A DNA stretch of 64,000 bases, taken from NCBI GenBank assembly GCA_964016885.1, contig OZ024750.1:19220001-19284000 (forward strand). The letters run 5' to 3'. The stretch comes from Eledone cirrhosa. Its lineage: Eukaryota. The notes beneath the pieces are model-generated. The model was not told the DNA's origin. It searched no databases and saw only the letters and a program-made list of their open reading frames with translations. The translations under genes and the position numbers were made by a program. Below are positions 21,432-59,231 of the stretch, piece after piece (positions within the stretch are counted from its first letter, which is position 1; every line of letters begins with the position of its first letter).

Positions 21432-21438
<7 letters not shown>

Positions 21439-21885
21439 GTTTGGAGTTGGAAGGCCAAGACAATGCAGGTATGGATATAGAATATAAATGCAAATGCAAA
21501 AAATATCGTTGACAATTAGTCTTTTACCTTAAATTTATTTAAATATCCTTAATTTTCGAGATAATATCTCTTCTTCGGAGGGAAGTAAAGGGGTTAATCC
21601 AGTGTTCTAATTAGCTTGCCAAGTCATGCTGACAGCATGACTTGGCAAGCATGACTTGGCAAGCTAATTAGAACACTGGATTAACCCCTTTACTTCCCCC
21701 CGAAGAAGAGATATTATCTCGAAAATTAAGGATATTTAAATAAATTTCAGGTAAAAGACTAATTGTCAACAATATCTTTTGCATTTGCATTTATATTCTA
21801 TATCCATACCTGCATTGTCTTGGCCTTCCAACTCCAAACGTTTATACCTCATTACGCAATGTTTCAAGTAAACTACAATTTCCTC

Positions 21886-21888
<3 letters not shown>
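21432..21888. mobile_element. Fold-back element: 200-bp inverted arms with decayed hammerhead core, ~40-bp one-sided tail, within (TA)n
   Basis: Arms 21432-21631 / 21633-21846, about 4 mismatches, 14-bp duplication at centre; CCGAAGA-A-GAGAT-ATT-ATCTC-GAAA-AT-TA-AGG at 21700-21731. Confidence 0.85.
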
Positions 21889-21914
<26 letters not shown>

Positions 21915-21920
<6 letters not shown>

Positions 21921-22369
21921 ATTAAATAAATGGAAACTATATTTATAAAACCATATTTATTTCATTATATATATTTCAGGGATATCATACTAACAATATG
22001 CTATGCCTTCCTCAGACAAAATACAATATAAACAGTTTTATAGATAAATAGATTTGACATACCGTAACAACATCGACTTGTATTTGAAAAGTTGAATTGG
22101 CAGTTCAACTTTTCAAATACAAGTCGATGTTGTTACGGTATGTCAAATCTATTTATCTATAAAACTGTTTATATTGTATTTTGTCTGAGGAAGGCATAGC
22201 ATATTGTTAGTATGATATCCCTGAAATATATATAATGAAATAAATATGGTTTTATAAATATAGTTTCCATTTATTTAATATTGTAAATATACTCCAAATA
22301 CTTGTCGAGTGCTTTTATATCAGTTATAAATATTTACTAGTTGTAACCCAACAATTTAAATATAACTTT

Positions 22370-22372
<3 letters not shown>
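21915..22372. mobile_element. Fold-back element: 182-bp inverted arms with hammerhead core, ~85-bp one-sided tail, within (TA)n
   Basis: Arms 21915-22096 / 22104-22285, no mismatch seen by eye. Confidence 0.9.
22177..22242 (+). ncRNA. Type I hammerhead ribozyme motif (mirror copy on - strand near 21958-22023)
   Basis: Stem I TATTTTGT/ATGAAATA; CTGAGGA 22185-22191; stem II AGG.ATA.CATA/TATG.TAT.CCT; GAAA 22223-22226; palindromic (AT) stem III ending in UA. Confidence 0.7.
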
Positions 22373-33714: not shown

Positions 33715-35665
33715 CGCCCCCCCCCCATAAAACATATACGGACCTCACATAAAAAAACGGGGCACCCAAATAAAAAACGGGGCACCCAAATAAAAAACTG
33801 ACCCGCCCCCATAAAAAACGGGGCACCCAAATAAAAAACGCCCCCCCCCCCATAAAAAAACCGGGCACCCCCCAAAAAAACGGACCCCCATAAAAAACGG
33901 GGCACCCAAATAAAAAACGGGGCACCCAAATAAAAAACGGACCCCCCCATAAAAAAATGGGGCACCCAAATAAAAAACGGGGCATCCAAATAAGAAAACA
34001 ATTTTTAATGTTGGTGCCCCGTTTTTTATTTGGGTGCCCCGTTTTTTTATGGGGGGTCCGTTTTTTATTTGGGTGCCCAGTTTTTTATTTGGGTGCCCCG
34101 TTTTTTTATGGGAGGTCGGTTTTTTATTTGGGTGCCCCGTTTTTTTATGGGGGTTCCGTTTTTCATTTGGGTGCCCCGTTCTTTATTTGGGTGCCCCGTT
34201 TTTTATTTGGGTGCCCGTTTTTTTATGGGAGGTCGGTTTTTTATTTGGGTGCCCCGTTTTTTTATGGGGGTTCCGTTTTTCATTTGGGTGCCCCGTTCTT
34301 TATTTGGGTGCCCCGTTTTTTATTTGGGTGCCCGTTTTTTTTATGGTGGTTCCGTTTTTTATTTGGGTGCCCCGTTTTTTTATTTGGGTGCCCCGTTTTT
34401 TTATGGGGGGGGGGTCCGTTTTTTATTTGGGTGCCCCGTTTTTTTATAGGGGGGTCCCTTTTTTATTTGGGTGCCCCGTTCTTTTATGGGGGGGGGTCCG
34501 CTTTTTATTTGGGTGCCTCGTTTTTTCATGGGGGGGGGGGGGGGGGGGGCGTTTTTTATTTGGGTGCCCCGTTTTTTTATGGGGGGGCCGTTTTTTATTT
34601 GGGTGTCCCGTTTTTTAATGGGGGGTCCGTTTTTTATTTGGTTGCCCCGTTTTTTATGGGGGGGGGGGTCCGTTTTTTATTTGGGTGCCCCGTTTTTTAT
34701 TTGGGTGCGCCGTTTTTTATTTGGGTGCCCCGTTTTTTATTTGGGTGCCCCGCTTTTTTTATCGGGGGTCCGTCTTCTATTTGGGTGCCCCGTTTTTTAT
34801 TTGGGTGCCCCGCTTTTTTTTATCGGGGGTCCGTTTTCTATTTGGGTGCCCCGTTTTTTTATGGGGGGGGGTCCGTTTTTTATTTGGGTGCCCCGTTTTT
34901 TTATGGGGGGGGGGTCCGTTTTTTATTTGGTTGCCCCGTTTTTTTATGGCGGGGGTCCGTTTTTTATTTGGGTGCCCAGTTTTTTAATGGGGGGGGGGGT
35001 CCGTTTTTTATTTGGGTGCCCCTTTTTTTATTTGGGTGCCCCGTTTTTTTTATGGGGGGGCCGTTTTTTATTTGGGTGCCCCGTTTTTTTATGGGGGTGG
35101 TCCGTTTTTTATTTGGGTGCCCCGTTTTTGTATGGTGGGGGGCACCCAAATAAAAAACGGACCTCCTCCATAAAAAAACGGGGCACCCAAATAAAAAACG
35201 GACCCCGCCCATAAAAAAACGGGGCACCCAAATAAAAAACGGGGTACCCAAATAAAAAACGGACCCCCCCATAAAAAAACGGGGCACCCAAATAAAAAAC
35301 GGACCCCCCCCCCATAAAAAAACGGGGCACCCAAATAAAAAACGGACCCCCCCCATAAAAAAACGGGGCACCCAAATAAAAAACGGACCCCCCCATACAA
35401 AAACGGGGCACCCAAATAAAAAACGGGGCACCCAAATAAAAAACGGGGCACCCAAATAAAAAACGGACCCCCCCATAAAAAAACGGGGCACCCAAATAAA
35501 AAACGGACGCCCCCATAAAAAACGAGGCACCCAAATAAAAAACGGACCCCCCCATAAAAAAACAGGGCACCCAAATAAAAAACGGGGCACCCAAATAAAA
35601 AACGGACCCCCCCCATAAAAAAACGGGGCACCCAAATAAAAAACGGGGCACCCAAATAAAAAACG
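33715..35665. repeat. Satellite of two ~20-bp subunits (AAAAAACGGGGCACCCAAAT and AAAAAACGGACCCCCCCAT) in three blocks of alternating orientation
   Basis: A-rich 33715-33992, T-rich 34012-35138, A-rich 35139-35665. Confidence 0.97.
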
Positions 35666-38604: not shown

Positions 38605-38660
38605 GTGATGCATTAAAACACAATTTATTAACATATTACAACAACTATATATATATATAT

Positions 38661-38858
38661 AGGTACGTTATTCCGGGTTGAATCGGAGGTAACCAAAGTA
38701 AGTAAGGTACTCAATACATTGCAGAGTATAAAAGTTTTCATATAGATGAGATTCTACAGGACTAGAACTGTTTCATTCTTTAGAAATCATCAGGAATCTC
38801 ATTTCTGATGATTTCTAAAGAATGAAACAGTTCTAGTCCTGTAGAATCTCATCTATAT
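38661..38858 (-). mobile_element. Fold-back element (family P2): 53-bp inverted arms with hammerhead, ~80-bp one-sided tail
   Basis: Arms 38741-38793 / 38805-38857; homologous copy at 63397-63567. Confidence 0.88.
38746..38802 (-). ncRNA. Type I hammerhead ribozyme with all three stems
   Basis: ATGAGATTC-CTGATGA-T-TTC-TAAA-GAA-T-GAAA-CAG-TTCTAGTC-CTG-TA-GAATCTCAT: 9-bp stem I, 3-bp stem II, 4-bp stem III, GUA triplet. Confidence 0.8.
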
Positions 38859-38959
38859 TAATATATATATATATATATATACATATATAGTTTTTGGAAT
38901 ATGTTAATAAATTGTGTTTTAATGCATCACTGATATATATATACCTATGTTTCATGAAA

Positions 38960-45202: not shown

Positions 45203-45232
<30 letters not shown>

Positions 45233-45233
<1 letters not shown>

Positions 45234-45819
45234 TTCGTTTCTGAATTTGTTTAGCAAGATTCTTTATCTGAAATCGTGTGTTGAAACCGATATTGTTATG
45301 CTTTGGGAGGGTCATGTTGCCAATAAGAAACACACGCACCAGTTGCTTTCACTTCAATTTATTATATATTTATAAATTTATAAATTTACAAATCTACAAA
45401 CTTATAAATTATAAATTTCTGGTTGGTTGGTTGGTTCCACAACCAGATAGTTGTTTATATATATAGTCATAGTCCTTTCGTCACACACTCTGTGACCTCT
45501 TCAGTGACTGGGGATTCCTTTCTTCGTTTCTGTGCCTTTTCACACACAGAAACAAAATGGCGTAGGATAGAAGAAAGAAAAGGCACAGAAACGAAGAAGG
45601 AATCCCCAGTCACTGAAGAGGTCACAGAGTGTGTGACGAAAGGACTATCACTATATATATAAACAACTATCTGGTTGTGGAACCAACCAACCAACCAGAA
45701 ATTTATAATTTATAAGTTTGTAGATTTGTAAATTTATAAATTTATAAATATATAATAAATTGAAGTGAAAGCAACTGGTGCGTGTGTTTCTTATTGGCAA
45801 CATTACCCTCCCAAAGTAT

Positions 45820-45827
<8 letters not shown>
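45233..45827. mobile_element. Fold-back element: ~250-bp inverted arms with hammerhead, 35-bp spacer, ~57-bp one-sided tail, within (TA)n
   Basis: Arms 45290-45541 / 45577-45827 with few mismatches; terminus TATTGTTAT..TTGGGAGGGTCAT recurs near 26434. Confidence 0.9.
45465..45509 (-). ncRNA. Minimal type I hammerhead ribozyme (mirror copy 45608-45652 on +)
   Basis: AGTCA-CTGAAGA-G-GTCACA-GAGTG-TGTGAC-GAAA-G-GA-C-TA-TGACT: 5-bp stem I, 6-bp stem II, 2-bp stem III, CUA triplet. Confidence 0.8.
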
Positions 45828-45868
<41 letters not shown>

Positions 45869-45964
45869 AATAAAGATTCAGCGGGAATCGCATTTTCGCC
45901 GGGCAGGAAAAGCGAAGCGAAGCGAAACGCAAAAATCAGAAATGATATATATGTATGTATATGT

Positions 45965-46139
45965 AAAAGTAAGAAATCGGAGAACAGACCTTTAATACAT
46001 GTTTATTTAAAACAGCACCTACGTACGTTTCGCCCGGATGGGATTTATCAAGGGCATAAACCCCATCCGGGCGAAACGTACGTAGGTGCTGTTTTAAATA
46101 AACATGTATTAAAGGTCTGTTCTCCGATTTCTTACTTTT
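45965..46139. mobile_element. Fold-back element: 84-bp inverted arms with decayed hammerhead core
   Basis: Arms 45965-46048 / 46056-46139; CCC-ATCC-GGG-C-GAAAC-GTAC-GTA-GG, preceded on - strand by CC-TTGATAA (CTGATGA-like). Confidence 0.8.
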
Positions 46140-46335
46140 CCACGTGCTTACGCTCTGCTAACTCTCTCGCCCACTAAATATTAACACTTCTAATATTTAA
46201 TACTGCCGGCACTAGTATTGAGCACCTTTTGCATACGCTATTTGGCAAATAACTACATGTATCACCTATCCCTCCTTTTTTTTCTCTCTCTCGATACGTA
46301 AATACTCTATGTATGTATATGTATGTATATATATT

Positions 46336-46492: not shown

Positions 46493-46547
<55 letters not shown>

Positions 46548-46548
<1 letters not shown>

Positions 46549-46733
46549 CATGTATGACCCGACGGCAGAGCTCAAGCCGTTTCAACGGCTATTTCTAGAA
46601 ATAGCCGTCGAAATGGCTTGAGCTCTGGTGTCGGCGTCATACTTGTTCTTATTACCCACTCTACTACCATAAATATTGAGTACTTTGGTGCGTTATGGTC
46701 CATCTGATTCCTTACCACAATTCCTTCGTTATA
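46548..46733 (+). mobile_element. Family P1 fold-back copy, loopless palindrome plus tail, within (TA)n
   Basis: Centre GGCTATTTCT|AGAAATAGCC at 46596/46597; tail as in 6010-6088. Confidence 0.85.
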
Positions 46734-46835: not shown

Positions 46836-46870
46836 TCTTCTGATGAACGACTAGCGTCCGAAACGTTAAC
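46836..46870 (+). ncRNA. Minimal hammerhead-like motif
   Basis: CTGATGA-AC-GAC-TAGC-GTC-C-GAAACGTT with palindromic AACGTT; weak stem I. Confidence 0.5.
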
Positions 46871-47477: not shown

Positions 47478-47827
47478 GAGAGAGATGAGAGTATTTGGAT
47501 TTATAAATGTGAAGTTTCTCAGAATGTAACAGATTACTTAAATGGATGATAAGATAAAGATTATTTGACGTGTAAACTTCAAAGATCTGTCAAGCTTGCA
47601 AGGTATCGCCTCACAATCTGCAAGTAATATATTGAAAACAACACATAAAAACCCTTGAAATGCTCTCTTTTGTCAAAATATCTAGGAATTTTGACAGGAA
47701 TTTATACAATGAAATATTTCCCGCCTTCTGTTTTTTTTCATTGCTTTTCTCCTGCTGTTGCTTGACTATGTATTCTCCATTTAAATATATTTACTACCTG
47801 ACAAAACCTATAACGAATGAGGGAAGG

Positions 47828-47963
47828 GGCGCTACACTGTCGCTCGATTTGGTAGAAATAGCAACGATATCTTGCTGGAATCATACTCTAACGTATTCAA
47901 TAAAGAAGGATATATAAATATACACATATATCACCATCATCTAGTCGAGCTTGCTCGGACAAA

Positions 47964-47998
<35 letters not shown>

Positions 47999-48162
47999 AT
48001 ATATATATATATATCATCATCATCATTTTGTCCGAGCAAGCTCGACTAGATGATGGTGATATATGTGTATATTTATATATCCTTCTTTATTGAATACGTT
48101 AGAGTATGATTCCAGCAAGATATCGTTGCTATTTCTACCAAATCGAGCGATAGTGTAGCGCC
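47828..48162. repeat. Inverted duplication of host DNA centred on (ATG)n(AT)n(CAT)n
   Basis: About 135-bp unique arms, one mismatch seen. Confidence 0.95.
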
Positions 48163-48344
48163 ATAAGGAACAAGGTGGACCATAAAGCACCAGAGTACTC
48201 GATACTTAGGATAGTAGAGTGGGTAATAGGAAAAGAGTCAGGACTCCGACGGCTGCTGGGCTCCGGTATTGCATACTAGTGGTTTAGTTCGGATCTAGCT
48301 GTCGAAACGGGCCGGAGCTCAGCCGTCGGGGTCCTGACTATTTT

Positions 48345-48350
<6 letters not shown>
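48163..48350 (-). mobile_element. Family P1 fold-back variant
   Basis: ATAGGAAAAGAGTCAGGACTCCGACGGCTG / CAGCCGTCGGGGTCCTGACTATTTTCCTAT arms; tail is reverse complement of the 6010-6072 type. Confidence 0.8.
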
Positions 48351-48400
<50 letters not shown>

Positions 48401-57745: not shown

Positions 57746-58081
57746 GGTGAGAATATTCCGACGAAAGCGTTTTGTGATTTGTAAATTCCGTACGGTCATT
57801 TAATGATTTTCTGATTTTTGTTTTTGCCTGGTAAACTCAAAATTACAAAGAGTATATTGACTATCTCAGTGAGTAACCTAACAGCTGCTACTATTCGTTT
57901 CCTGAAGATTAAAAACAAATAATGTCCCAGTTGATATTAATATTGTTTTAACTTCAAAGTGGATATCTACAGACGAAATAATTAAGATAATGAATCCGCT
58001 GGGAAATTTTTTCCTACTATGTAGACAAATTGAAAACAACTAAATTACTTCTAGTTTTCATTTTGTATCAAACGTATATAT

Positions 58082-58133
<52 letters not shown>

Positions 58134-58469
58134 ATATATACGTTTGATACAAAATGAAAACTAGAAGTAATTTAGTTGTTTTCAATTTGTCTACATAGTA
58201 GGAAAAATTTCCCAGCGGATTCATTATCTTAATTATTTCGTCTGTAGATATCCACTTTGAAGTTAAAACAATATTAATATCAACTGGGACATTATTTGTT
58301 TTTAATCTTCAGGAAACGAATAGTAGCAGCTGTTAGGTTACTCACTGAGATAGTCAATATACTCTTTGTAATTTTGAGTTTACCAGGCAAAAACAAAAAT
58401 CAGAAAATCATTAAATGACCGTACGGAATTTACAAATCACAAAACGCTTTCGTCGGAATACTTCTCACC
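57746..58469. repeat. Inverted duplication of ~330 bp host DNA centred on (TA)n
   Basis: Arms identical except about two 1-nt indels; centre near 58108. Confidence 0.96.
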
Positions 58470-58803
58470 GTTATCGAGTATGGCCATTGCACGATATAAC
58501 ATTATTAATAATTATTAATTAATTCTATCGTGCAATGCTTGTGCGCGAAGATATTTTTTTAAAATGAGGAAAGACTGTGCACTGAGCCAATCCCACTCTC
58601 TGAGCGACAGTAGCTATAACCCGAAAAGAAGAAAAGATCAACATCATCGGTAACTACTGAGCCGCAGGTTTTATATCGGAATTATCCCAGTTTCCTGAGT
58701 TGCCTTCTAGAAGAATGCCCTGACAAAGGCTAGGGGTCCTTCACTGCCTGTGGTTTAACCGCGCGATCGGGTGTCCAGCCCGATTATTTCTATGTCGCCG
58801 CGC
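58470..58803 (-). mobile_element. Non-autonomous RTE-derived element related to 39280-39784
   Basis: Minus strand has AGAGAGTGGGATTGGCTCAGTGCACAG and ends TGGCCATACTCGATAAC. Confidence 0.6.
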
Positions 58804-58874
58804 ATATACATACACATGCACCCATGTATATACACATATACATACATATGTACATGTGTATATACATATTTACA

Positions 58875-59070
58875 CACTTTTGGGTGGCCGTTGACTCTTA
58901 TGAGTTCTTCCGCCCTTTGTCAGGTTTTGGTTTTTGTCCTGCAGGGTGTCCAAAATCACCCTCCTCACCAAGTAAACTAGGTGGGGTTGCCGGTTTAGCC
59001 GCCGACGACCCGACCATGCGACAGGTTGTACTGGGTTACATGTTACCAGTAGCATTCAAGAGTGACCCGA
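58875..59070 (+). mobile_element. Second copy of the ~180-bp repeat at 28578-28750
   Basis: Direct homology; the ORF track shows shared CPKSPSSPS. Confidence 0.75.
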
Positions 59071-59231
59071 CATATACATACATACATACATGCGTACATA
59101 CATACATAAATACATACATATATACATACATGTATACATACATAAAACCGTTGTCTGGAATAAAAGTATCTCGGCCAGAGTACTGGCAAATCTTTTATAT
59201 AATAAATACCACCCCCAACAACTATGATAGT

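Follow-up and report, generated by a model that had tools for sequence, protein, structure and literature searches.

In yeast, breaks can leave fold-back inverted insertions of 5 to >150 bp whose far joints carry 0–5 bp of homology (Yu et al. 2024, PMC11724301), and in Drosophila end joining TA and AT are reported as frequent among the snap-back primers (PMC5728401). TA repeats are themselves described as break-prone (PMC13645644). For L1, some insertions are reported to carry the reciprocal end duplicated in inverted orientation, one of them primed at TA/AT (bioRxiv 10.1101/2024.12.14.628481, Fig. 4D-E). Among Penelope-like elements, the Hydra clade is described as having a C-terminal endonuclease, a CxCX5C linker, CxxC and CxH motifs and insertion in (TA)n (Craig et al. 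2021, PMC8557442), an arrangement of truncated copies that face each other, with a tail on one side, is known anatomy (PMC8557442; PMC3846280), and with a purified Penelope-like protein both cut strands are extended and synthesis begins at two internal RNA sites without homology (PMC11167929).

The locus analysed here lies in a 64,000-nt stretch of DNA from Eledone cirrhosa, referred to as the window, and joins an inverted duplication of host DNA to a high-copy repeat, P1. It resembles the yeast insertions in its inverted copy of break-adjacent DNA, its inverted-microhomology primer, its length of up to about 150 bp and its 0–5 bp far joint; however, the break described for yeast was HO-made and most copies there were <35 bp (PMC11724301), whereas here the primer is a TA run without a loop and copies in this genome measure 26–450 bp and are inherited. 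As in Drosophila SD-MMEJ, a 3′ end would pair with an inverted repeat in the same strand and prime synthesis before rejoining, but the synthesis described there is short and involves new microhomology (PMC5728401), in contrast to 150 nt and no microhomology at this locus. The L1 cases share a retroelement beside an inverted target duplicate and one instance of TA/AT self-annealing, yet the duplicate described there is ligated to the primary reverse transcription (RT) end in the same event (bioRxiv 10.1101/2024.12.14.628481). Here, by contrast, the duplicate abuts an element of older appearance on its start side, and a truncated insert end of the same age is not seen.

Anatomy of the duplication and its joint

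Two inverted arms of 150 nt each (47828–47977 and 48013–48162) share 99% identity when their ATG/CAT units are included, and without these units the arms measure 136 nt with a single mismatch (47839 G vs 48151). The resident arm A (47828–47963, + strand), template of the duplication, is continuous with the single-copy left flank in contigs from the sequencing runs, and the inverted copy A′ (48027–48162, − strand), one mismatch away from A, is backed by the 2x depth of the collapsed arm. The centre between them (47964–48026) consists of (ATG)11 at 47964–47996, (AT)9 at 47997–48014 and (CAT)4 at 48015–48026, and the arms A and A′ differ in ATG number. The self-complementary AT run at 47997–48014 would be the point of fold-back; a DNA hairpin is predicted across it, no stronger than in shuffled sequences.

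The flank at 47700–47909 is single-copy as far as the search sees in the microsatellite-rich 3.0-Gb assembly, and the idea that the arm is a piece of a mobile fold-back element was ruled out because most of the arm is single-copy. An earlier note on this DNA had described unique flank inverted around a TA tract; the inverted arms are confirmed, but not all of their sequence is unique, as 47910–47958 (− strand), within arm A, holds a TA-rich run and a 3′ stub derived from a high-copy LINE, with 39 other matching places. This stub is copied again inside A′ at about 48032–48080, and its relatives lead into an RT-bearing ORF (Pfam RVT_1, E 6e-25).

The duplicate is followed by a single A at 48163, crossed by contigs, which in a comparison with 29 P1 copies was unlike both the flank and the P1 consensus, and the joint between arm and P1 consists of 0 bp of microhomology and this one extra base. 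The lone A may have been left over at the end of a trimmed AT tract or added without a template, and its fit to an AT-run remnant is consistent with a two-stage account in which the duplication came after P1. Beyond it lie 183 nt of P1, resolved by copy comparison into a tail (48164–48228, − strand) that lacks the last 16 nt and the TA tract seen in normal copies, an arm continuous with that tail (48229–48266, − strand), and a second arm in the opposite orientation (48273–48346, + strand), which is longer than the first and stops at an inner TA site. The far end of P1 then returns to (TA)n, as the earlier note had stated, in the form of (TA)25 at 48347–48397. Because 28 of 29 other P1 copies extend about 16 bases past this junction, nearly always followed by microsatellite, and 30 of 33 P1-like tails in a random genome sample reach the usual tail end, the duplicate meets a clipped tail and not a tail end. 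The description of the duplicate as joined directly to the P1 tail is thus right about a junction at 48163/48164, which is real, but this is not the normal end of P1, since 16 bases and the TA tract are absent. RNA folding of the tail at the clip point was no better than that of shuffles (z 0.59 and −0.34), and RNA structure was therefore dropped as a mark of the clip point.

In three runs from one sample, a 79-nt contig crosses 48121–48199 with 0 differences, and the single arm mismatch separates contigs in all three. Depth over the left flank, the collapsed arm and the junction was 6.05/12.2/5.7, 7.7/17.2/9.0 and 4/8/4.1, or about 1:2:1, in runs whose sample may be the same individual as the assembled one and in which 0 contigs crossed the microsatellite centre. 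The reads thus carry the inversion, with the junction contig at 1x and the arm at 2x, up to the uncrossed centre. In one run the flank contig and the window disagree at 4 places, just where another run has a gap; with these variants and a junction depth equal to that of the shared flank, the structure is probably present on both haplotypes. The flank was covered in this one sample; of three RAD runs, the one compared (X21) had no depth there, and 17 of 23 listed runs reached a share of just 0.07 and were set aside. An assembly or library artefact, namely a fold-back chimera formed at the TA run, could draw on the uncrossed centre and on the possible origin of the runs from the assembled sample, but the relative depths of junction and arm, the mismatch that splits the contigs in every run and the unequal ATG number of the two arms leave it a negligible probability.

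P1 and its age relative to the duplication

The usual form of P1 is a pair of facing arms with a TA tract on each side. Long P1 copies, followed 1.2 kb upstream, run into the end of an ORF (L076, L077, L282, L283 and L286), the protein piece of which gave 0 matches in Pfam, while its nearest Atlas clusters are named GIY-YIG (0.95). The P1-linked ORF translations contain, by eye, a CxCX5C linker together with CxxC and CxH motifs. Upstream of the P1 endonuclease end in L286 we saw broken motifs that we take to be RT-like, although the 87-aa putative RT piece of this locus received 0 support from Pfam or Atlas. In L076 and L079, the RT and GIY-YIG frames adjoining P1 are those of a different element and played no part in the assignment of P1.

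By these sequence features, we identify P1 as the 3′ remnant of a Penelope-like element of Hydra type, in the head-to-head arrangement already known for such elements. It shares with the Hydra clade described in PMC8557442 a GIY-YIG-type ORF end, here 1.2 kb upstream, the same motifs, (TA)n insertion, an inverted truncated copy and a one-sided tail; it differs in a tail of about 80 nt, against 30–40 nt there, and in that no hammerhead was detected in long P1 units. For the P1 units of L076 and L077, no Rfam hammerhead appeared among the 150 of 181 matches listed, the Rfam matches there being microsatellite noise, and a core-motif scan of 4 decayed P1 copies found none outside the ORF. The anatomy described for the Hydra clade in PMC8557442 includes no host duplication, and P1 is placed beside it by motifs. 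As facing truncated copies have already been described and a relative extends both cut strands, the fold-back shape of P1 is not new. A simple self-copied hairpin is an unlikely origin for P1 here, given that the tail-less arm is the longer one and the arms differ.

Had duplication and insertion been a single event, divergence between the two arms would be expected to reach about twice that between P1 and its source. Compared with the family majority, the P1 copy is changed at 4 sites of 84 and 3 of about 71, or 7 in 155 aligned bases, with a small insertion seen by eye besides these 7 substitutions. Depending on which recurrent variants are discounted, 5–8 changes are counted in 184 bases (5–6 without the widely shared ones), none of them a CpG transition, and set against 1 of 136 arm sites these give Fisher p values of 0.04, 0.02 and 0.004 for 5, 6 and 8 changes, respectively. 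The changes taken as private were judged against 66–81 pieces for P1 and only 11 relatives for P2, the element of the second case below, so that a rare diverged source may exist. An exact 30-mer of this P1 tail had no second match in the assembly, which removed a young P1 subfamily as source, and the same search does detect sisters where they are present, since for a control fold-back element of the window with identical arms 39 of 39 other scored hits lay at 99–100%. The element at 21909–22371 of the window, with identical arms and 39 of 39 other scored hits at 99–100%, is a very young fold-back element and probably belongs to a recently active family.

Correction between arms could in principle make a duplication look young. 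A comparison of 52 pairs of facing P1 arms, however, gives 183 differences over 2477 sites, with 80 rare variants on one side only against 5 that are not; short palindromes here are therefore not strongly homogenised, in a control that rests on 55-nt arms, so that longer perfect palindromes might be corrected more. Taken at the level of the sequence, the P1 copy looks older than the duplication.

A second case and the genome survey

A second TA-centred inverted duplication of single-copy DNA lies at 57746–58469, as read from the assembly alone. Its 341-nt arms differ by 0 substitutions and 2 one-base indels, and the second duplicate is joined with 1 bp of homology to P2, a high-copy element of 606 nt identified by copy comparison (58470–59075, − strand). 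This P2 copy lacks 15–16 nt and a microsatellite that nine of nine relatives bear at that end, and in three of the nine the opposite end is cut short; with the joint-side end fixed and the other end variable, the end at the joint is likely the 3′ end. Relative to 11 relatives, the P2 copy carries 8 private substitutions in 608, and its nearest relative differs at 20 of 587 sites. The age gap between the arms and P2 gives p 0.002, or 0.03 with indels counted. The clip lengths at the two local cases are thus nearly equal, 16 nt and 15–16 nt.

To place these cases, 153 stretches of 10 kb were surveyed (150 at round-number positions and 3 beside the window; 1.53 Mb in all). The scan returned 14 rows outside the window, which reduced to 11 loci once L158 (two separate copies of one family), L246 (microsatellite only) and one of two L168 rows were left out; a stricter search gave 10. 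TA-centred inverted duplications therefore occur at about 7 per Mb, at about 1% of 1,090 TA clusters. Nine of the 11 run into TA or a different microsatellite at the far end, where the joint holds no element; in the other two (L090 and L279) the duplicate meets the truncated far end of a short insert that has its regular start in TA on the opposite side. None of the 11 in the 1.53 Mb sampled ends at a clipped element start. A further 111 element-centred loci of 3 kb yielded 4 more duplications, two ending at or near TA, one cut by the locus edge, and L016, which repeats the geometry of L090.

At L090 and L016 the duplicate is 100% identical to its template and the insert 100% identical to its sisters, so the ages agree there. 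Perfect inverted copies of neighbouring DNA, 26–56 nt long, stand at the truncated insert ends of L090 (3882–4124), L016 (2419–2853) and L279 (1636–1729), and these three are the best candidates for insertion coupled to an inverted target duplication with L1-type geometry, L090 and L016 matching the L1 cases with agreeing ages. The proposal that inverted target duplications can result from insertion therefore finds support at L090 and L016, opposite the normal start and at the truncated insert end, but not at the locus under study.

Elements altered at the joint-side end were also followed outward. Ten P1 tails chosen for non-TA joints from 83 hits, one of which proved not clipped, showed no host duplicate within 480 bases beyond each, 13 further P1 loci, 4 of them true clips or joins at this point, were without a duplication, and none of 7 P2 copies altered at the joint-side end carried a host duplicate. 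Clipped ends were thus rejected as a marker of duplications, none having been found at the 7 P2, 13 P1 and 10 further P1 loci. An enrichment of retroelement 3′ ends at TA-centred breakpoints, as the earlier note had expected, was not observed at 11 sampled duplications or at the 10 chosen P1 tails, both small samples. The clipped-start geometry is rare, not absent, in samples of this size.

Other arrangements of P1 and of TA tracts were seen alongside. At L131 (2300–3150), a palindrome is centred on the turning point of P1 and runs through TA >400 nt into the flank, and a private P1 variant is mirrored in both arms, a fold-back from the element hairpin rather than from a TA run. At L149 (2264–2700) and at 38605–38930 of the window, short inverted host arms flank an element between two TA tracts. 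In the match list, P1 tails at G000:C3:81665571-81665627 and C7:50153808 apparently turn back, tail to tail, near the same clip point.

A probable later repair event and its alternatives

We consider it probable that a TA break occurred beside an older P1 and was repaired by snap-back synthesis and end joining. P1 would have inserted in an AT run behind (ATG)n, giving an earlier allele of the form A-(ATG)n-(AT)n-P1-(TA)n. A nick or break in the AT run may then have arisen by cruciform cutting, fork stalling or an abortive cut by a Penelope endonuclease; the left 3′ end would have paired with itself, a polymerase would have copied back about 150 nt, as has precedent, and the new strand would have been displaced. 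Before ligation by end joining, the AT remnant and 16 nt of tail would have been removed from the right end. A Penelope enzyme may have taken part.

The later-event reading follows from the age gap at both cases, the absent sister copy and the weak homogenisation of short palindromes, and from the high share of bare duplications (9/11), the fixed normal starts of P1 (30/33) and the precedents for yeast and for TA breaks. The locus also has the features of a local fold-back inverted insertion, namely inverted adjacent DNA, a self-complementary primer, (AT)9, and 0–5 bp of far homology. The first half of the mechanism in the earlier note, in which a broken TA end turns back and is elongated along the strand it belongs to, accordingly fares well, as it fits the anatomy, has precedent and recurs throughout the survey at about 7 per Mb. 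The second half, in which the extended end primes reverse transcription, does not, given that the joint lies 16 nt inside the normal start and P1 looks older than the duplication. Two observations weigh against the later repair: near-identical losses of 16 and 15–16 nt need not arise from random trimming, and two long-armed cases with clipped joints lie 10 kb apart, with none in 1.53 Mb elsewhere. Nor was an allele of the ancestral form found in the one sample that covers the flank.

In the alternative of a single event, a Penelope enzyme would cut in TA and the snapped-back, extended end would directly prime reverse transcription about 16 nt inside the usual RNA start, the other end being primed at the inner site. 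Penelope-like and SINE-like elements would then insert with an inverted target duplication, and the age gap would reflect either later correction of the long arms, hiding a shared age, or a diverged source RNA. The polarity is right, as the 3′ end of the duplicate runs into the strand of a tail-primed cDNA, and the second case agrees in polarity and resembles it in its clip; the similar clip at both local cases is the best remaining argument for one-event priming. Yet the age gap is seen in both cases, the sister source copy of P1 was not found, the clip point is not a regular P1 start, none of the 10 other clipped tails or 7 altered P2 copies has a host duplicate and none of the 11 sampled duplications shares the geometry, so that one-event priming appears unlikely even with a purified Penelope-like protein that extends both cut strands and makes internal RNA starts without homology, as reported in PMC11167929. 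A replication template switch would dispense with the break: the new strand, stalled at the AT run, would switch to itself as template, copy back 150 nt and re-enter 16 nt inside the resident P1, yielding the same product and the same age order. Hairpin formation is possible for the P1 palindrome. Re-entry after a template switch, however, usually uses a few bases of homology, whereas the joints have 0 bp here and one base in the second case, and we judge such a switch quite improbable, although sequence alone cannot separate it from break repair and TA runs are described as hairpin-capable (PMC13645644). It is very unlikely that the two parts are chance neighbours, the duplicate having ended in TA beside a full P1 until an unrelated deletion took the TA and 16 nt: this would need two events, twice in 10 kb, and the young arms leave little time, even though TA is where most duplicates end, some clipped P1 tails have no duplicate and a repeat lies within 40 nt of 813 of 2162 TA-tract sides (38%).

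Under the favoured account of a later TA break and fold-back repair, the locus is likely an ordinary repair scar of a known kind that is common in this genome. TA-centred fold-back duplications then form a large natural germ-line record of a process known mainly from induced breaks, with prior knowledge drawn mainly from yeast, flies and cancer cells. The minority represented by L090 and L016 would imply that Penelope-type TA cuts leave two free ends, one of which can be remodelled before joining, and this bears on how Penelope-type elements integrate. Priming of reverse transcription by an extended TA end, if true, would be a new insertion signature; our literature search, outside which lay most subscription papers and the supplements, found no description of the priming model or of this pattern in octopus.

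The window contains further repeats of related shape. Elements of other families with the order TA-arm-arm-tail-TA lie at 21432–21888, 45207–45866, 45962–46142 and 46547–46730, and hammerhead-like cores were recognised by eye at 45207–45866 and 46840–46870. At 33752–35665, an array of a 20-nt unit contains three orientation switches and nested palindromes.
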